Source of the DNA: a virus
DNA: 64,000 nucleotides
Strand: one strand, 5' to 3'
Virus record (IMG/VR): IMGVR_UViG_3300003155_000005
Location: 1-64,000 of that record
Part shown: positions 2,931-46,326 of the stretch, in pieces
Layout of the letters: every line of letters begins with the position of its first letter
Numbering within the stretch: the first letter of the stretch is position 1
Translations under genes and position numbers: made by a program
Notes under the pieces: model-generated
The model's database searches: none
What the model was told of the DNA's origin: nothing
The model's input: the letters and a program-made list of their open reading frames with translations, nothing else

Positions 2931-3347
2931 ATGACACAATCATTTATATCACAAAACTTAGCGGGGGGGGGCGTAAAAATTTATAGATTAATAACAGAGC
3001 CTGTCACATTTACTATAAAAGACAATGCCCAAAAACTACATCTTCCTATGGAATTAAAATCAACAGATTCTTTACTTATGGAGTATACTATAGGTAAGGT
3101 GAGTTTAAATAATGTGAATGGCCTTACTTGTTATACAACACAAAGAAATACAGCAATTTTGCCATTACAGGGCGTAGATGTACTGAAGAATATGGGGAAA
3201 CTAATAATTCCTATGTTTAGTGGTACTGAGAAAAAATTTATAGGAATACAGTACTATCCTCATGATTTTGATTTTGTCTTTATGCAATACGGTTCAGACT
3301 CAACTGGCATTCCATTTATTATACATGAATTATATCTTCTTAGATAA
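2931..3347 (+). CDS. poly-G family paralog C (MTQSFISQNLAGGGVKIYRL...), G tract in frame
   Basis: ATG 2931 lies just after the stop of the peptidase gene. G9 at 2963..2971 is in frame. Ends at TAA 3345-3347. Confidence 0.6.
   Translation: MTQSFISQNLAGGGVKIYRLITEPVTFTIKDNAQKLHLPMELKSTDSLLMEYTIGKVSLNNVNGLTCYTTQRNTAILPLQGVDVLKNMGKLIIPMFSGTEKKFIGIQYYPHDFDFVFMQYGSDSTGIPFIIHELYLLR
2963..2971 (+). repeat. G9 homopolymer inside paralog C (in frame)
   Basis: gcG GGG GGG GGc, counted directly. Confidence 0.9.
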
Positions 3348-14333: not shown

Positions 14334-17300
14334 ATGGCTGAACTAAGATCAAAGAAAAAGAAAGACGAATTACGTAAGAGAGTTGACAGACTTCCGACCT
14401 TCACAGAAAAAACTGAGGAAGAGTTAAGGAAGGAGTTGCTTGCTTCAACTATAGATGAAGAAACTGAAGAGTCCCCATATTATTATGAAGATAAAGTAGA
14501 AGTACATAAGAAAAGGACTGAAGGGTTATGAGATGTAATATTAGAAGATGAGATTCATTATTTTGATCCAGAATTGTCTTATGAAATAACAGGATATAGA
14601 CCTATTAATGAGACTGAAGGATTAGATTTTGATCCCACTCCTTTTATAGAAGTTGGGCAGGTATATCAGAGAACTGGAAGATACACTGCACATAAAAAAG
14701 GAGGCAAACCTTATGTGGACTTTTGAAGAGAACAGATAAGGCGTTGTGTTGAAGGTTATACAGTAGGGAAATATAGGGTTACAGGAGATCATTATTTCTT
14801 CTTAAACTTCTATAGAATGGGTATTGTAGATGATAAGAAAAAAGCAGGAGCTGGCTCAGAAGAATCTTTTCCATTTTTCACATCAAAGCAATACGAGTTT
14901 TTTCATTATGTAGAAATGTGCGAATATCTTAAAAAAGATGTAGTAGCATTAAAATCTCGAGCGGTAAACTAACCTGCCGCCTTATATAGTAATATGTAAG
15001 TAAAAATTCCGCAAAATCGGTAGAAGCTACGATAACTAAATATGTGATTTTATTACGATGACAAAACAAGAACAAATTAAATTTATAGAGGATAACTATC
15101 CCGAATATACAAATCATTTTAGCAAACGCTCTATTAGACATGATTTCTTTTCTGAAATTAAAACTGAGTTACAAGCATATTTATTAGGATTTTATGCTGC
15201 TGATGGTAGTATAAATGAAAAACGAAAAACTTTACGCATTCATTTATGTGATGTGGATTCTGATATAGTAAATATGTACAAAACATATATCAGCCAGGAT
15301 GCAAGAACCTTTATTCTACAAGAACATATTACAACTGGAAGAAATGGGATGAAAGTACAAGCACATAAATCATATGGCATTGATATAACCAGTACAAAAT
15401 TATGTGAGTCCCTAGTTAATCTAGGATTTGGATATAATAAAACATATGTGGAGCATAGTTTTCCAAAAATGGACCCCTCTCTTTTTAGGCACTTTATTAG
15501 GGGTTATTTTGATGGGGATGGTTCTATTACTGGAAGCTATCGTAAAGCTCAAGAAAATAGAAAAGAGAGAATGACTATGAATTTTACAATAGATTTTAAA
15601 AAGGCTCAATTAGCATTAGAATTCCAAAAAGAGTTTGCAAGAAGAGACATAAAATCCAGTGTAATATATTTAAAAAGAGATGATATGTATAGATTAACTA
15701 CAGCATCTATTCCCAACATTAAAAAGTTATTTCATTTCTTATATGATGATTGTAATTTTTATGGTAATAGAAAATATAAAAAATTTAGTTATTATGTTAA
15801 TACCGAGGTAAGTCAGTTGATTGCTGACCACCGTAACGCGTAGGAGATGATCGCTAGAAACAGAAATAATTCTCCCAAGAGTGCGGAACATCCATTTGGA
15901 TGAAAATGTACGCTGAACTTATAGGAAACTATAAGAACTATAGGATAAAAAGCCTATAGGATAACAAAAATTGAGGATTCTCAGAAATAGGAGCCTGTTT
16001 AGGAGTTAGACCTTTTATTACTACTAGAAAATTTAGAACAGTTTACACTGCCTATTCTGACACATATGTTGATGCTGTACTAGATAAATGTTGGTACCAG
16101 CTTAACTGATTAAGTAATAATACTGACGGAGGTATGAAACGTGTTCGACAGAAGATCGATAATATTAAACAAAAACGAGCTTCTAAAGTTGATAAAGACG
16201 GAGTAGAATCTGGACGTATGGCAGAAATAGAAGGAATTCCAGCAGATAATCCTAGAAAAGTTCGTGGTGATCGTTGTGATAGGCTGATGTTCGAAGAGTT
16301 TGGTTCTAATCCAGTATCTAGAACATCTTGAACCCAAGGAACTGCCCTTGTTGAAATTGGTGGTGTACGTAGAGGCATTAAGATTGGTTGGGGAACTGGT
16401 AGGGAATTAATTTAATTTATTATATTACAAGTAATTTTTATTAGTCAATGAAAAGAGAAAGTAAACAAACTGTTATAAATATTGCTATTCAAGAGTATTT
16501 GAACATCCCTGAAAGCGATAGAAGCTTAACTCAAATAGGAAGAAAATATGGAATTAAGCGTCAAACATTATCTAAATATTTAAAATTAAGAGGCTATGAA
16601 GTTATTAATTACCAAAATATTCATAGGCTAAATGAAACAATTTTTGATACAATAGATACTGAAGAAAAAGCATACTGATTAGGATTTTTATATGCTGATG
16701 GAAATATTAGTTCTGAAGGATTTAGATTAGAGATTAATTTATCAATAACAGATTTAAATCATATGAAAAAATTAGCTACTTTTTTAAACCTTACAAATGA
16801 TATTAGATTATCGGCAAATGGAGAAATTTGCAGGATTTCTGCAAGAAGTAAGCATTTATGGGAGCAGCTAAATATTAAGGGATGTACTCCTTGTAAAAGT
16901 CTAACTTTAAAATTTCCTAATGCTGCAATTTTTTCAAATTCACAATTAATCTATGATTTTATTCGAGGTTATTGTGATGGTGATGGATGTTTAACTGTCT
17001 ACAAAAAGAATAATTCTGTAGTAACAGAATTAAATTTTGTGGGAACCGAAAATTTTTTACTTGAGGTTGAAAAAAAATTAAATATTAAAGGATATATTAG
17101 GAATAAGAGTTCTATGAAATATATTAATAGAGCCTATTCTTTGAAATATTCTGGAGTTGCAGCAAGAAGGGTTGCAAGATTATTGTATGAAAAAGCTTCA
17201 ATATATTTAGATCGAAAATATAATAAATATAAATTATTCTGCCTCCTAGAAGAGGGATCTTCTAGAAGAAAATCGAGCAAAATCGGTGAAGGCTGAGATG

Positions 17301-18622
17301 CTAATACCGAGATAACTAATTAGATTGCAAAAGGCTAATTAGTATTGTAACGCGTAGATACTGAATAAATATAATGTATCCAAGAGTGTTCGACATCCAG
17401 AACGGATGAAAATGTACGCTGAACTTATGAGAATCAAATCATAAGAACTGCAGATAAAAAACTGCAGGATAACAAATTGGGAGACCAAGGCCCTTCATTA
17501 ACAGGATTATCTGAGATATTTAGTGATCCTAAAGCTAATAATGTCTTACCTTATAAGAACTTCTACTCCTCAGATGGAACTGTTCAATATACAGGATTTT
17601 TTATTCCTGCCTATACATTTATGTTGGGATCTGAATATACAGATCATCGGGGAGTTACAAATACAGAGAAAGCAAAAAAATATTATGAAGAGCAAAGAGC
17701 TGCTAAAAGTGGCAAAAGTCTTCTTGAATATTGTTCAGAATATTGTTTTACTCCAGCTGAAGCCTTATTAAGGCAGGGTGATAATATTTTTGATGCTATT
17801 GCTATTTCAGATAGAATTACCCAAATTAGAATACACAAAATGGGAATTAAACCTAGACGTGTAGCACTTCTTTGGGACAAAAGCGAAGGGGATGAAAGTT
17901 TAAACAAAGTAAAGGTTTATGATAAGGTGGATAGTAATATTCTTATCTATGAAGAGCCCATGTTAGATGATAAAGACCCTTATAAAAATTTATATGTAGC
18001 TGGGATAGACTCTATTGACCAAGGTACAGAAGATTCTGCAACTCAAAAAGATGTATCAGATTTTTGTATTGTAATAAAAAGAAGAGCCTATGGTTTAAAA
18101 GAGCCTAAGTATGTAGCTGTATATAAAGAAAGACCAAGAGATATTAGATTGGCGTATGACAATGCAATGAAATTATTAACTTGATATAATTGCAAAGCAT
18201 TACTGGAACACACCAAAATTAGTATCTTAACCTACTTTAAAAGCAAGAAAAAAGATAATCTTTTTATGAAACGTCCAAAATCTAGTCTTAGTGATATTAA
18301 GAGAGGTAATTCACAAATGATTGGAGTCCCTGCTACAGAAACTATTATAAAGCATGGATTGGAACTTATTAATACTTATATAAATGATTATTGTTATACA
18401 ATAGATTCTGATATGATTCTGGAACAATTATTAAATTATTCTTATGAAAATAAAAGAAAATATGATATTGTTGCAGCTATGAGTATGGCAGAAATCGCTG
18501 ATGAAGAGTTAATGGGATTTAATCCAAAACCTGCGCATAGTGTAGAAAAAGAATGGAAAGATTTTGGATGATTTACTAATTCAAAAGGTTATAAACAGTT
18601 TGGAGTTATTGGTGATGAATAA
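14334..18622 (+). CDS. terL: terminase large subunit, three exons: 14334..14965, 15974..16400, 17480..18622 (733 aa after splicing)
   Basis: Spliced product reads ...FPFFTSKQYEFFHYVEMCEYLKKDVVALKSRAV|GFSEIGACLG...DRLMFEEFG...IGWGTG|GDQGPSLTGL...YVAGIDSIDQG.... Exon lengths 632+427+1143 sum to 2202 nt (3 x 734). In-frame TGAs lie in exons 1-3. Ends at TAA 18620-18622. Confidence 0.85.
14966..15973 (+). mobile_element. group I intron 1 in terL (1008 nt)
   Basis: The 5' exon ends in U. GCGGU can pair with the intron's GCCGC (14975..14979) as a P1 helix with a U-G wobble. The intron ends ...AAAAATTG (terminal G). The 3' ~130 nt are closely similar to intron 2. Confidence 0.7.
15058..15843 (+). 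CDS. LAGLIDADG homing endonuclease (intron 1 encoded)
   Basis: Two motifs, LLGFYAADGSI and IRGYFDGDGSI. The ORF runs into the conserved intron core. Confidence 0.85.
   Translation: MTKQEQIKFIEDNYPEYTNHFSKRSIRHDFFSEIKTELQAYLLGFYAADGSINEKRKTLRIHLCDVDSDIVNMYKTYISQDARTFILQEHITTGRNGMKVQAHKSYGIDITSTKLCESLVNLGFGYNKTYVEHSFPKMDPSLFRHFIRGYFDGDGSITGSYRKAQENRKERMTMNFTIDFKKAQLALEFQKEFARRDIKSSVIYLKRDDMYRLTTASIPNIKKLFHFLYDDCNFYGNRKYKKFSYYVNTEVSQLIADHRNA
16401..17479 (+). mobile_element. group I intron 2 in terL (1079 nt)
   Basis: Splits W-G-T-G|G-D. The 5' exon ends in U and the intron ends ...ACAAATTG. Shares AATACCGAG, GTAACGCGTAG, CCAAGAGTG, GGATGAAAATGTACGCTGAACTTA and a hairpin plus GATAACAAA with intron 1. 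Confidence 0.7.
16448..17323 (+). CDS. LAGLIDADG homing endonuclease with N-terminal HTH (intron 2 encoded)
   Basis: Track ORFs 16448 and 16763 are joined by in-frame TGA 16676. Motifs are LGFLYADGNI and IRGYCDGDGCL. Read through TGA 17294 to TAG 17321-17323. Confidence 0.8.
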
Positions 18623-33036: not shown

Positions 33037-34694
33037 ATGGACGTAGTAGAAAAACAGATTGTACATGAGTACGACGAAAATCACAAGGAGTATGCATCAA
33101 AAGGTGTTGCTGGTACTGGATTAGGCTTAATATACTAGGTCCTTATAATAGTAATATTATATGCAAAACTCCCTTAATTGCTGGAACCTCCAGAAATGGA
33201 CAATCAGCAGCTAAGCTTTATGTTCCCACAATACTTGTTTGTTCCAATTATTCTTTATATCTTTGTATATTAATAATTTAAATTTTTATTATGATAAGAG
33301 GTATAATTTATAAATATACATCACCTTCAGGTAAAGTGTATATTGGGCAAACAATTAATGAAAAGGATAGAAGAAAACACTTTTTAATTCAGAAACTTAG
33401 CTATGGCGGTATTAAAATTGATACTGCACGTGCAAAGTACAATCCAGAAAATTTTAAATATGAAATTTTGGAAACAAGATTTTATATGACGAAGAAAGCT
33501 GCTGCTAAAGAGTTAGATATATTAGAATCGTATTATATTGGCTTATATGATAGTTATAAATATGGTTATAATATGACACTTGGTGGCGGAACAACAACTG
33601 GATTAAAATTTACTGAAGAACAAAAAGAAAAATGTCGAAAGAGAATGTTAGAACATAATCCATTTAAAGGAAAACGACATACTCAACAGACAAAGAATAC
33701 TATCTCTAATGCTAATAGTATCCCTGTAATACAGATAGATCCAATAACAAATGAAGTAATTAAAGAATTTAAATCTGCAAGAGAAGCAGCAAGATCTTTT
33801 GGTAAAGAACGATCAAATTCTGAAATTATAAAAGTTTGTAAAGGATATATCTCTCCATCAGGAAGACATTATAATACAGCATTAGGTTTTAAATGGAAAT
33901 ATAAAGAAAGTTCAACGACTATCTCGGAAGAGAGTAGCACTAAGTAGTGCGAAATGGGGAGCATCCAAATTGGATGAAGATATAGTCTTAACTACATGTA
34001 TATATAAAGATGTAGAAGTTCATAAGAGAACTGCATAAGATTAACGACCTTATGTGAAAATATTGTAGGTATCGCTGGAACTGCTCTTGGACTTTTAGCT
34101 CTTAGTGGAAGAGGCTTATTTGGCCTTGGAAATGCAGGCAGTGCTGCAGCAGGTGCATTAGCAGCTGAAGCTATTACTGGAGGCCCTACGGCTTTCCAAG
34201 CTTGGCAACATTCTTGCAATGCTAAGTTAGCAGATCAAAAAGCACTTTATGATTTTGCTTTGTTATCAGCAAATGCTCGTTTTAATGATCGTCAAACGAT
34301 CAATTCAGAGATGTTTGGTTTATACAAAAGCCAAATTGATGCAGATTTCGGACTGTACAAAAATCAGAGAGACCAATTCGACGTATTAGCCGATCGTATT
34401 GGAAAACTTGAGACTGCTGCTGCTGTACAAGCTGCTGTAGAACCTTGGAGAAGTAAAGTAACTAAGATGGAGATTGCTAATGTAGCTGGCATGGTAGGAC
34501 TTGAAGCTGAGCGCAGAATGTGTGCTGACAATAAGATAGTAAATTATGCAAATAATACATTCTATCCTATTCGTATAGCTGCTGTTGAAGTAGGTACAGA
34601 TACAGTACAGCGTTCACTGTATAATCCACTTTGCCCTTGCTCAGGATACTCAAATAGCATCTTATTTGAGCCTACAACAACTCCTGCAGCTTAG
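33037..34694 (+). CDS. Gly/Ala-rich membrane-associated protein, two exons (about 33037..33127 and 34066..34694; ~239 aa)
   Basis: Exon 1 is MDVVEKQIVHEYDENHKEYASKGVAGTGLGL. Exon 2 is GIAGTALGLLALSGRGLFGLGNAGSAAAG...QAWQHSCNAKL..., continuous with track ORF 34260..34694. 91+629 = 720 nt. A junction 6 nt upstream (ending 33121) is also in frame. Confidence 0.6.
33128..34065 (+). mobile_element. group I intron 3 (~938 nt) carrying a GIY-YIG endonuclease
   Basis: Interrupts an otherwise continuous Gly-rich reading frame. Ends ...AAAATATTG like the terL introns. The 3' segment CATCCAAATTGGATGAAGAT...ATAAGAGAACTGCATAAG resembles their 3' cores, and the 5' CCTTATAATAGTAATAT resembles intron 1. Confidence 0.6.
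33291..33947 (+). CDS. GIY-YIG homing endonuclease (intron 3 encoded)
   Basis: MIRGIIYKYTSPSGKVYIGQT...YGYN has the GIY..YIG motifs plus a C-terminal NUMOD/IENR-like DNA-binding repeat (EFKSAREAARSFG). Confidence 0.8.
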   Translation: MIRGIIYKYTSPSGKVYIGQTINEKDRRKHFLIQKLSYGGIKIDTARAKYNPENFKYEILETRFYMTKKAAAKELDILESYYIGLYDSYKYGYNMTLGGGTTTGLKFTEEQKEKCRKRMLEHNPFKGKRHTQQTKNTISNANSIPVIQIDPITNEVIKEFKSAREAARSFGKERSNSEIIKVCKGYISPSGRHYNTALGFKWKYKESSTTISEESSTK

Positions 34695-43184: not shown

Positions 43185-43853
43185 ATGACAATAGAAGCCA
43201 TAGCTAGTGCCGTGTGGAACAATGTCTACGACGGCCTAAAAGGAACTGTAAGTAACCCAGCAATGTCATTAGAACAATTAACTGATGAGGTTGTTGCAGA
43301 AAGAAATAATATTGCAAAAGAATATCTTTTAAAAGGAGTTATGACTTTACAAGAACTTTATAATGCAGTAAATTGTGTTGAAGTTAATTGTGATTTTATG
43401 TCAAAGTGTTGTGATCTTCCAGTTGGAAAGAAAGCTTTGCACTTTGAAATTCCTCCTATTCTTCTTATGAATGGAGTTTCCACAATTCAATTTGTAGGAA
43501 GTATAGATAGACAAGAACAATATAGTGTTTATACTGATGTAAGTTATAAATTTCATTTCTTTAGAAAGAGAGGAGCTGATAAACCATTTGTTTATATAGA
43601 TCCTACAATAAACTCTAATGGCAACATTGATGGTTATATCTTTAATGTTCCTTTTGTAAAATATATTTCAGTAATTGCAATTTTTTTAGATCCAAGAAAA
43701 CTATTAGAATTTGATTGCTGTAATGATTCTGAAACTATAACAGAATGTGGAATTATCTCTAATGATATTATTCATAGACTTACTGAGAAAAAGATTAGAT
43801 ATTACAGAACTGCGATGTTACCTGCACAACCAAATACTCAAACACCTTTATAA
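43185..43853 (+). CDS. hypothetical structural-module protein (222 aa)
   Basis: ATG 43185 lies downstream of the terminator and is preferred over GTG 43140. Confidence 0.55.
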   Translation: MTIEAIASAVWNNVYDGLKGTVSNPAMSLEQLTDEVVAERNNIAKEYLLKGVMTLQELYNAVNCVEVNCDFMSKCCDLPVGKKALHFEIPPILLMNGVSTIQFVGSIDRQEQYSVYTDVSYKFHFFRKRGADKPFVYIDPTINSNGNIDGYIFNVPFVKYISVIAIFLDPRKLLEFDCCNDSETITECGIISNDIIHRLTEKKIRYYRTAMLPAQPNTQTPL

Positions 43854-44689
43854 TGATTAGGGGTATTATTTACAAATATACATCTCCTTCTGGAAAAGTA
43901 TATATAGGACAAACTTTAAATGAGAAGAAAAGACGCCAAAGTTGATTTAATTTAAATCGCCCATATGCGGGCCCAAAAATTAATGCTGCGAGAAAGAAAT
44001 ATTTATCTGAAAATTTTGAGTATGAAGTAATATTTAGAATAGAGTCCTTAATTAAAGAAGAGGTAATTGAGATGTTAAATAATAAAGAAAGACAATATAT
44101 TCAATTGTTTGATTCTATCTATAACGGATATAATATTTCAATAGGTGGAGATTCAACTCTTCATATCTATTCCTCAGAAACCAAGAAAAAAATTTCAGAG
44201 CGTGCAAAACTGAGATATAAAGATTCTCGTAATAGACATATAACTTCGGAAGCAATAAAAGAATATTATACTACACATAAGAGTGTTGTTAGAAAACCTG
44301 TACTACAATTTTCTATTGAAGGTATATTTATTAGAGAATGGGAGTCTGCGAAGGCAGCTGGAGAAGCATTAGGAATACATGCAAATAGAATAACCACTTG
44401 TTGCAAAGGGCATAGAAACTATGCAGGGAGTTCTATATGAAAATATAAAACAGATTTCATAGAAATCCCATTAAAGATCTCTATAGGAGTTCAAAAAGGA
44501 TCCACACTTCCTGTATATCAATATAATTCAGATGGAATTTTATTAAAACAATGAACTTCTATTACAGAGGCAGCTAAGGAATTAGGATATAGTTTAAGTA
44601 ATTTTAGTACCTACTGTAATGGGAGAAATAATCATGAATATAAAGGGTTTTATTACTTTAGAGGACAACACAAATATGAAACTACATAA
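43853..44689 (+). CDS. free-standing GIY-YIG homing endonuclease (278 aa)
   Basis: ATG overlaps the upstream TAA. The N-terminus MIRGIIYKYTSPSGKVYIGQT is identical in protein to the intron 3 enzyme. Three in-frame TGAs (43942, 44438, 44552). NUMOD-like repeats are present. Ends at TAA 44687-44689. Confidence 0.75.
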
Positions 44690-45365
44690 TTTTAACTCAG
44701 TTTATTCCATGGCAAGTACTGTTTATGGGATTACTGTAGATCCTACCAACTTTGAGGATGTTGCAATGTTAGGATGGGAATTAATCGGAAATAGACACAC
44801 AAAATTATATAGATACGTTACCAATACAATAAATAAACGTATTAAACTACCTTGTAATTTAGTGGAAATAGAATCAGTCACAATTCCTTATATGGATGCT
44901 CAAATGACATCCAATCAAACCACTTATCCTCAAGTATATAATCAATATGTTGAAAAATATATTGAAGCTTGAAAGTGAGATGAGTCCACTTTATATGAAG
45001 CTGGAAAAATGATTAAATATAGAGAGGAAGGGGACGAGATTGTTTTTGATAGGGATTTTTCAGAAGTAATTATTCTTTATCACGGAATTATTGCTGATGA
45101 AGAAGGGTTGCCACTTTTGAATGATAAAGAAGTTCGAGCTTTAGCAGCTTATATTGTGTACTCCGATACTTATAAACAAGCATTAATGAGAAAAGATGGA
45201 AATCTTGTACAACTTGCACAAGTAGCTAAAGCAGATTGATTAAAAGCCTGCACCGCAGCTAGAATTCCAGATGTATTTACGCAAAATGATATGGATGCTA
45301 TTCTCGATGTGAAAACTCGTTGAGATCGTAAACAATATGGAAAAAGTTATCATCCAGTATTATAA
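44676..45365 (+). CDS. hypothetical structural-module protein (~229 aa)
   Basis: Track ORFs 44619 and 45009 are joined through TGAs. The start is ambiguous (44619, 44634 or 44676). Ends at TAA 45363-45365. Confidence 0.5.
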
Positions 45366-45366
45366 T

Positions 45367-46326
45367 ATGATAGGATATGTTTATTTAAGTACCTGTATAG
45401 TAACTCAGAAAGTTTATATCGGAATAACTATTCAAGATTATACAAAGAGATGAAAAGATCACATAAAATATTCATTTAATCCTAATTCTAATACTTATAA
45501 TCATCATTTTCATAGAGCTATTCGAAAATACGGAAAAGATAATTTTGTATGAACTATAATAGAAACCGTGCAATCTGAATCTAAAGAAGAATTGATAAAT
45601 TTATTAAAAGAATTAGAAATTAAATATATTAAGCATTATAATTCATATAATAAAGGATATAATTCTACAAAAGGAGGAGACACTTCAAGAAAAGAATGTA
45701 AGGGAATAGATGTCTACAATGAAGAAGGCATTTTATTAACCTCATTTTCTAATGCTAAGGAAGCCTCTGATTATTATGGTATTTCTAAATCCACAATTTA
45801 CCAATGTTGTGGAAGATTCACTACATATAACCTTTGAAAAGATTCTAGACTTATATTTAGATATAACACTGATATAGTTACAGAACAAGATCTAAGAGAT
45901 CTTTCACAAAATCACTATGATGCTACTGTAAATATGTATGATAGGAATGGGAAGCTGTTATATACATTTACAACTATTACAGAAGCAGCTAAAATATTAA
46001 AGCTCTCTCGTATTAGAATTACTGACAATTGCTCGAAACGAACTTCTTTTGTATTAGTAAATGGAGTTAGATATTTATTTAGATATTTTAATGAAGTACC
46101 TACTAAAGCAGAACTTCAAAAACTTAATAAAATAAAATCAGACCCAAAAATAAAAGTAAGAGCTATAGATGCTGTTACAAATAAAATACTTGGTGATTTT
46201 GAATCACAACAAGTTGCAGGAAAATATTTTAAAGTTAGACCTAATAATATTAGTGAAGTATGTTCAGGAAAGCGTAAAAGTGCGGGTAAATATAATGGAC
46301 ATGCTATCTTATGAATAAAAATATAA
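45367..46326 (+). CDS. free-standing GIY-YIG homing endonuclease (319 aa)
   Basis: MIGYVYLSTCIVTQKVYIGIT...YNKGYN plus three NUMOD-like repeats. Track ORFs 45568 and 45934 are joined by 4 in-frame TGAs. Confidence 0.75.

Follow-up and report, generated by a model that had tools for sequence, protein, structure and literature searches.

The terL locus and its product

The window analyzed here is the whole stretch of 64,000 nucleotides (nt) at positions 1 to 64,000 of the IMG/VR virus record IMGVR_UViG_3300003155_000005. Its terL gene, which encodes the large subunit of the terminase, lies on the plus strand between positions 14334 and 18622. Read with the standard genetic code, the terL frame has many breaks; six are in-frame TGA codons, and the two that are left are insertions which we describe as group I introns of one family, intron 1 (14966 to 15973, 1008 nt) and intron 2 (16401 to 17479, 1079 nt), both on the plus strand and each with an open reading frame (ORF) for a LAGLIDADG endonuclease (HEG1 and HEG2). 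Exon 1 (14334 to 14965, plus strand, last base U14965) encodes amino acids 1 to 210 and bases 1 and 2 of the Val211 codon; exon 2 (15974 to 16400, plus strand, last base U16400) supplies the rest of Val211 and amino acids 212 to 353; exon 3 (17480 to 18622, plus strand) encodes amino acids 354 to 733 and ends with the stop codon TAA (18620 to 18622). Each exon has two in-frame TGA codons read as Trp. The exon lengths (632 + 427 + 1143 = 2202 nt) are divisible by 3, and joining them gives a TerL of 733 amino acids. A first-pass annotation, made from the sequence alone, had claimed this continuous product and the multiple of three, and both are borne out, although it had not stated that all six TGA codons have to be read as Trp. 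The points at which it let the frame break and resume also hold, both in the joined ORF and against intron-less DNA (contig L001, see below). A single detail needs adjustment: the boundary at 15974 is right, but the first codon of GFSEIG is at 15975, since base 15974 finishes the split Val codon.

Across the window, long ORFs cover 62.7 kb with genetic code 4 versus 42.9 kb with code 11. ARAGORN found no tRNA within the 64 kb, although TGA is a sense codon (Trp) in the late/structural genes, and a suppressor tRNA must therefore sit elsewhere in the genome.

The joined TerL gave one continuous match to PHROG 6681 (terminase large subunit) over residues 75 to 720 (E=2.7e-64). A protein search retrieved about 30 clusters of uninterrupted proteins of 730 to 733 amino acids with 95 to 97% identity and 100% coverage, and farther uninterrupted homologues with identities down to 56%. 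In an alignment with 16 uninterrupted homologues (56 to 97% identity), the spliced protein is free of gaps at both junctions, and both lie inside invariant motifs, LK[AS]R[AG][VIL]G[FWL]SE and GTGGD, in agreement with the earlier claim that the insertions sit in highly conserved motifs. The Walker-A label for insertion site A of TerL is a motif-based one, because sequence searches of the PDB with HEG1 and TerL gave nothing useful. Without removal of the introns and TGA read as Trp, the terminase, a standard phage marker gene, shows up as about nine fragments, and genomes of this kind are mis-annotated or lost from TerL-based phylogenies.

DNA junctions and presence or absence of the introns

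A 167.6-kb Logan contig (L001) carries an intron-less terL allele that is contiguous across both sites. Positions 16400 and 17480 of the window are adjacent in it, which defines intron 2 unambiguously as 16401 to 17479. For intron 1, the same comparison gives 14966 to 15973 with a 1-nt A/A ambiguity, which was settled as the first-pass annotation had proposed because U precedes the 5' splice site and G ends the intron. Indeed, as had been noted before, both 5' exons end in U (U14965 and U16400) and both introns in ...AUUG (at 15973 and 17479). The predicted ligated junctions read ...CGAGCGGU/AGGAUUC... (junction 1) and ...AACUGGU/GGAGACC... (junction 2).

Two further contigs (L002 and L003) start within the 3' end of intron 1, and neither has intron 2, so that each insertion is present or absent independently of the other. 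Among the IMG/VR relatives with at least 94% identity, six have neither intron, five have intron 1 only, and none has both. Five independent IMG/VR contigs have intron 1 at exactly the same position. Intron 2 was found again in an independent sample (L022/L083), where its guide is unchanged; its 5' junction sequence was not found in IMG/VR. Insertions in the terL genes of relatives map to five sites (amino acids 211/212, ~292, 321, 351-354, and 689/690), and the intron family described below is found in four of them, as well as in many other genes.

Around the site of intron 1, spliced nt ~500 to 900 (14834 to 14965 plus 15974 to 16240) have 76 to 83% nucleotide identity to all close relatives, with flanks of 95 to 100%. 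The differences in this exon patch are mostly synonymous, and the patch diverges also from the relatives that carry intron 1; intron 1 itself is 88% identical to theirs. Either co-conversion from a donor that has not been sampled or mosaic recombination of the ordinary kind would fit this pattern, and a co-conversion tract is suggestive only, because no donor can be identified.

At amino acids 351-354 (GTG/GD), the site of intron 2, two relatives have an in-frame intein instead (L104, 5047 to 6134; L112, 2899 to 4001), with C...HTY[LI]ANN ORFs that contain LAGLIDADG motifs. Hence, intron and intein target one conserved motif. A third relative (L113) has an insertion of equal size at this position, which is not matched by the covariance model of the intron family (R1, see below). 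The TerL of a human faecal phage (L039, MT835539.1), ~40% identical to that of the window, is encoded in three pieces with two introns of the same family (1557 to 1738 and 3122 to 3271); the two-intron arrangement thus recurs.

A ribozyme family shared by both introns

Since Rfam found nothing in the window, relatives served to derive the RNA structure. A 20-mer of the 3' region common to the two introns, GGATGAAAATGTACGCTGAA, is present at 34 loci of IMG/VR, which lie in many different host genes. In every family member, a conserved CAAGAG is followed by 7 nt that are complementary to the 7-mer that precedes a conserved AAA-(U/A)CGG-UGAA, and these two strands form the long-range helix P3, whose sequence differs from member to member and which spans up to ~980 nt. 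The 5' part of the family comprises P1 with its loop, the guide, P2, P3, J3/4 (AAA), P4, J4/5 (UGAA), P5 with L5, P5', J5/4 (AAUA), and P4'. It is followed by P6/P6a, J6/7, P7 with one bulged nucleotide, P7.1, CAAGAG, P3', P8, J8/7 (AAAAUG), P7', P9, P9.1, and GAUAACAAAUUG ending in G. The joiners J3/4 and J8/7 are A-rich. The order P3-P4-P5-P6-P7-P7.1-P3'-P8-P7'-P9 produces a P3/P7 pseudoknot, as is typical of group I introns.

This architecture covaries. Two alignments were used: A1, a plain MAFFT alignment of 16 family members chosen with the P7' word, and A4, with 27 distinct model-derived matches, including members found via TerL. In A1, 94.3% of the cells are paired, versus 71% after shuffling and 29 to 41% with the 3' partners slid; changes on both sides occur in 34 of the 51 pairs, and all seven P3 pairs are compensatory. 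The paired fraction in A4 is 95.6%, with slid controls over both alignments at 29 to 46%, and every core helix covaries in A1 and/or A4. P7 is invariant in A1 because its members were selected with the P7' word. In the 27 sequences of A4 it is 100% paired, with compensatory changes in three of its six pairs (GCGUA/UACGC, GCAUA/UAUGC, and GCGCA/UGCGC); its form is A(C)GCGUA/UACGCU, where the closing pair is A-U or G-C, the bulge is C or A, and the G-C pair beside the bulge is invariant. P7.1 is a single covarying hairpin of 5 base pairs (bp), 4 to 5 of them compensatory, with an optional inner stem (P7.1a) and no separate P7.2. A terminal G is present in all family members whose 3' end lies inside the contig (24/24).

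Furthermore, guide and exon sequences covary, in at least 10 relatives; pairs in the family are GCGGU/GCCGC, GGGGU/GCCCU, GGAGAU/GUCUCC, CAGGU/GCCUG, CGGGU/GCCCG, CCCGAU/GUCGGG, and AGCGGU/GCCGUU. For the guide of intron 1, covariation with the exon was seen in L005, L014, L009, L021, and L034.

The two introns of the window are homologous over the whole core, from P3 to the 3' end, and the relationship claimed earlier for their last ~130 nt is thus real and reaches further. Their ORFs interrupt the scaffold at different loops, and it is because the ORF lies in L5 in intron 1 and in the P1 loop (L1) in intron 2 that the 5' parts look different. The first-pass view that the 5' parts and the endonucleases differ is thereby refined: the different look of the 5' parts is explained by the position of the ORF, and the endonucleases are homologous (HEG1 versus HEG2: 26% identity, E=3e-13). 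Within the family, ORFs are found in L5, in L1, and elsewhere in the P7.1 loop.

Multiple copies of the family also occur within 12 to 14 kb of other gut phage contigs (L030, 885 to 1089, 2729 to 2891, and 4007 to 4163; L009, 6132 to 6290 and 7378 to 7552), and several of these follow the GGU codon of P-loop motifs (GSG/KS, KSG/KS, KG/SGK, and GTG/KT). In Clostridium phage CB452P1 (L038, OP172752.1), an unannotated intron of the same family (2303 to 2545; R1, 98.6 bits) ends at the start of an annotated "hypothetical protein" coding sequence; the coding sequences that flank it are probably exons of one gene.

Detection by covariance models

The family covariance model R1 covers P3 to P7' (167 positions) and was built from 14 relatives without any window sequence. 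It gave exactly two matches in the window, one in each intron (17273 to 17423, 143.9 bits, E=6e-33; 15760 to 15917, 102.7 bits, E=5e-23). Rfam, applied with the gathering score and with E<=10 to the window, 15 related loci, and compact ORF-less members, gave no group I match for the family. As a positive control, RF00028 detected an unrelated group I intron (L007, 2110 to 2372, 81.9 bits) on a contig that also holds an Rfam-invisible family member. A match to RF00028 is a detector and not a defining trait of a group I intron; the covariance-model search suggested by the first-pass annotation was accordingly negative with RF00028 and positive with R1. Because the family is invisible to RF00028, surveys relying on that model undercount phage group I introns, and A1 and A4 together with R1 would recover those that it missed.

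Structure of intron 1 and intron 2

The guide of intron 1 (CCU/GCCGC, 14973 to 14980, plus strand) pairs with AGG of the 3' exon as P10 and with GCGGU of the 5' exon as P1 (5 bp), in which U14965 is opposite G14976. This P1 had been proposed before with the correct pairing and the wrong position, GCCGC being at 14976 to 14980, one base from the 14975 given. With 8 contiguous bp, the guide is joint top of 171 intron G positions; the tie is with one G inside the ORF (15262), which leaves the guide as the only top-ranked G position just 5' of P2. The 5' core (14981 to 15027, plus strand) consists of P2 (14981-85/14996-15000), the 5' strand of P3 (UUCCGCA, 15007-13), J3/4 (AAA), the 5' strand of P4 (15017-20), J4/5, and the 5' strand of P5 (15025-27). 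The 3' core (15796 to 15973, plus strand) begins with P5' (15796-98), J5/4 (AAUA), P4' (15803-06), P6/P6a (15807-32), and J6/7 (GUA), continues with P7 (A15836, bulged C15837, and GCGUA at 15838-42), P7.1 (15843-47/15871-75), CAAGAG, P3' (15882-88), P8 (15889-93/15898-902), J8/7 (AAAAUG), and P7' (15909-14), and ends with P9 (15918-35), P9.1 (15938-59), and the terminal G15973. A first hand model with the intron 1 ORF in P6 was dropped, as the alignment with ORF-less relatives puts it in L5.

In intron 2, the guide UUCU/GCC (17237 to 17243, plus strand) forms P10 with GGAG of the 3' exon (4 bp) and P1 with GGU of the 5' exon (3 bp), with U16400 opposite G17241. It is joint top of 182 intron G positions and lies at the homologous place just 5' of P2. 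The core (17246 to 17479, plus strand) comprises P2 (17246-53/17258-65), P3 (17273-79), J3/4 (AAA), P4 (17283-86), P5 (17291-93/17300-02), P4' (17307-10), and P6/P6a (17311-46), followed by P7 (A17350, bulged C17351, and 17352-56), P7.1 (17357-61/17376-80), P3' (17387-93), P8 (17394-98/17404-08), J8/7, P7' (17415-20), P9 (17424-45), P9.1 (17448-67), and the terminal G17479. A minimum free energy fold of 17237 to 17479 alone yields P2, P3, P4, P5, P6a, P7.1, P8, P9, and P9.1 (z = -4.86).

LAGLIDADG endonucleases

HEG1 (15058 to 15843, plus strand) lies in L5 of intron 1 and encodes a double-motif LAGLIDADG protein of 261 amino acids (LLGFYAADG and IRGYFDGDG) without any TGA codon. It scores above the Pfam cut-offs for PF14528 (LAGLIDADG_3; 40.2 bits, cut-off 22.5) and PF00961 (LAGLIDADG_1; 26.9 bits, cut-off 23.1) and matches phrog_4645 (1e-35). 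The ribozyme elements P5'-P4'-P6-P7 overlap with its last ~17 codons. HEG2 (16448 to 17323, plus strand) lies in L1 of intron 2 and is also a double-motif LAGLIDADG gene (WLGFLYADG and IRGYCDGDG), with matches to phrog_4645 (2e-48) and PF14528 (21.4 bits). Hence, each intron has its own LAGLIDADG gene, as the first-pass annotation had stated. HEG2 ends at TGA 17294-96 (282 amino acids) or, if this TGA is read through, at TAG 17321-23 (291 amino acids), and at its 3' end it runs into the guide, P2, and P3-P5. An in-frame TGA (Trp) at 16676-78 just precedes motif 1 and recurs in the related L101 and L099 endonucleases; this endonuclease lineage therefore uses the recoded translation of its hosts.

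A sequence just upstream of the HEG2 start, ACAAGTAATTTTTATT (16428 to 16443), is conserved upstream of the related L101 endonuclease as well and may be a promoter or a translation signal for the intron ORF.

Discussion

In sum, our data point toward a crAss-like phage with two mobile group I introns in its terL, both from a single ribozyme family and each with a LAGLIDADG gene, a reading to which we assign a probability of roughly 90%. The first-pass annotation had likewise arrived at three exons and two related group I introns with one LAGLIDADG gene each, and the junctions, the covariation, the R1 matches, and the homology to an intron of phage JCL1032 (see below) support it. We infer splicing, catalysis, endonuclease activity, and homing from the sequence. 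In our model, each intron would fold into its P3-P9 core on the late pre-mRNA, and an external guanosine bound in P7 would attack after U14965 (intron 1) or U16400 (intron 2), this U being held in P1 by the guide. Aligned by P10, the freed exon would then attack after the terminal G (15973 or 17479), and the two splicing events would yield the continuous 733-amino-acid frame, to be translated with TGA as Trp. Virion production would thus depend on two splicing events. In a mixed infection, the LAGLIDADG enzyme may cut an intron-less terL at the conserved motif, after which the intron would be copied in by repair.

Several observations weigh against this reading. With E<=10, RF00028 matches neither the window nor L005, L004, and L026, which are compact relatives without an ORF. 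The PF14528 score of HEG2 is just under the cut-off, and HEG2 needs TGA read-through. An allele of terL with both introns was not found in IMG/VR, and the spliced sequence of junction 1 was not found in JGI metagenome contigs, a search that is uninformative because those contigs are mostly DNA. Finally, P1 of intron 2 has only three canonical pairs, whereas relatives at the same site have 5 to 6 bp, whether ORF-less or ORF-bearing (CUGGU/GCCAG in L110 and L101, GGUGGU/GCCACC in L108). This P1 is the weakest element of the structural model. With three pairs, splicing of intron 2 may be inefficient or assisted by protein.

The last two points lead to the most serious alternative, in which the introns are real and the allele is defective: intron 2 would no longer splice, and the contig would represent a non-viable or helper-dependent genome. 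The degenerate P1 strand (GCCUCC, versus GCCAG in L101/L110) and the missing double-intron allele speak for it. However, the same intron 2 and guide recur in the independent sample (L022/L083), its core is fully paired and outscores that of intron 1, P1 and P10 together form 7 contiguous pairs with the ligated junction, and the exons are intact, with 99 to 100% nucleotide identity to functional alleles around site D, the site of intron 2. We therefore regard a defective allele as improbable.

Less probable still is a terL that is truly split, with free-standing homing endonuclease genes dividing it into three parts, each translated on its own, whose products would assemble as a terminase. Phage genes split in this way, with endonuclease genes between the pieces, do exist, and both endonuclease ORFs have their own ATG. 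The arrangement at the junctions argues otherwise: junction 1 falls within a codon (GU/A), neither exon 2 nor exon 3 begins with a start codon, and the insertions excise precisely and have a covarying ribozyme core with guides complementary to both exon ends. Splicing at the protein level has a precedent in the inteins of related TerL proteins, even at GTG/GD (L104 and L112), and P0061, P0095, and P0119 have intein Pfam domains. In the window, however, the host frame runs into a stop two codons into intron 1 (TAA) and four codons into intron 2, neither endonuclease ORF is fused to the host frame, and no Hint domain was found, which excludes the intein reading from the sequence itself and makes it highly improbable. 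A group II intron was considered and rejected. An assembly chimera or artefact is just as implausible: the contigs L002, L003, and L022 break inside the introns, so assemblers struggle at these sites, but intron 1 is at the identical site in the five independent IMG/VR contigs, intron 2 is found in L022/L083, and both excise to a perfect ORF.

The two introns in terL have a close counterpart in phage JCL1032 of Lactobacillus delbrueckii (Riipinen and Alatossava 2004), which is cited in a passage of PMC6669764 as proven to have self-splicing group I introns. R1 matches the JCL1032 terL intron with 83 bits (E=4e-19), inside a TerL coding sequence annotated as a join() in GenBank. It shares with the introns of the window the ribozyme family, the host gene, P10 (6 bp in JCL1032), and the terminal G, and it follows the GGU Gly codon of the NTPase motif GRKNG/KT, with AACGGU/GCCGUU as P1. 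Unlike them, it is short and ORF-less, sits at the canonical P-loop, and belongs to a siphovirus of a Gram-positive host that uses the standard code. Distant BLAST matches of the intron 2 core include the TerL genes of Staphylococcus phages (among them ROSA), the crAss-like phages cr118_1, cr131_1, and cr7_1, Clostridium/Clostridioides phages, and JCL1032.

The TerL of the window is ~30% identical to Crassvirales TerLs (cr55_1, cr1_1, and others), and its close relatives are on contigs of 145 to 177 kb; the phage is TGA-recoded and crAss-like and probably belongs to the Zeta group. Zeta crAss-like phages are reported to have genomes of 145 to 192 kb, to be TGA- or TAG-recoded, and to contain up to 14 introns plus 3 inteins in a genome (Yutin et al. 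2021, PMC7886860). The Zeta and Delta phages of that study resemble the window in that LAGLIDADG-bearing group I introns split core genes, TerL is often invaded, homing endonuclease genes are numerous, and TGA encodes Trp. There, introns were recognized via endonuclease domains and inteins were illustrated for TerL, whereas here the RNA is defined and a TerL with two introns is resolved to the base. Furthermore, TerL genes of Bastillevirinae are split by two or three group I introns (PMC11878797), and terminase introns of Bacillus cereus prophages are of type IA1/IA2, with BLAST links to ROSA and JCL1032 (PMC2504315). Both groups, whose introns are of type IA, resemble the present case in having a TerL gene split by one to three group I introns, a site-adapted guide (internal guide sequence, IGS), and an early stop after the 5' splice site. 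They differ in that most of their endonucleases are HNH or VSR-like and their introns were detected with Rfam/GISSD (most IA detections needed GISSD subgroup models, PMC11878797), whereas the family described here has LAGLIDADG endonucleases and escapes RF00028. Publications already describe introns in TerL as well as Zeta crAss-like phages that are rich in introns and TGA-recoded; since phage terminase genes, and this group of phages, are known to harbor such introns, the case is well supported but ordinary.

The points of some interest are the blind spot of Rfam, the mobile position of the ORF in one ribozyme scaffold, the TGA-dependent endonuclease, and the weakness of P1 in intron 2. For studies of homing, the locus also provides paired alleles with and without the introns, and an intron competing with an intein for one TerL site. 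In a wider reading, the two introns would belong to a large group I lineage of gut and Gram-positive phages that is invisible to Rfam, prefers GGU glycine codons of NTPase motifs, and tolerates an endonuclease in at least three loops (L1, L5, and P7.1). In one endonuclease lineage of recoded phages, the TGA before the motif would then let the late suppressor tRNA of the phage gate production of the enzyme and hence homing, and intron 2, with its 3-bp P1, may need its own protein as a maturase. We put this joint reading forward tentatively and consider it rather unlikely as a whole.

Subgroup IA phage introns such as T4 td have the extra helices P7.1 and P7.2 between P7 and P3'. PMC2504315 classes as IA1/IA2 a set that includes the introns of Staphylococcus phage ROSA and JCL1032, which are BLAST relatives of the intron 2 core. 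The introns of the window share with the td type a P7.1 at this place, a short P4-P6, an ORF looped from a peripheral helix, and an ORF whose 3' end overlaps the core. They differ in having one hairpin, P7.1 with optional P7.1a, and in their R/S elements, GUAACGCGUAG/AAAAUGUACGC, compared to GUUCAxAGACUA/AAGAUAUAGUC in the td type.

Other homing endonuclease genes

Three further homing endonuclease ORFs, of the GIY-YIG type, lie on the plus strand in the structural-gene block (33291 to 33947, 43853 to 44689, and 45271 to 46326; phrog_314/7168/5123), which brings the number of homing endonuclease genes in the 64-kb window to five. Neither R1 nor Rfam gives a match at these three ORFs, and two of them share the N-terminus MIRGIIYKYTSPSGKVYIGQT.

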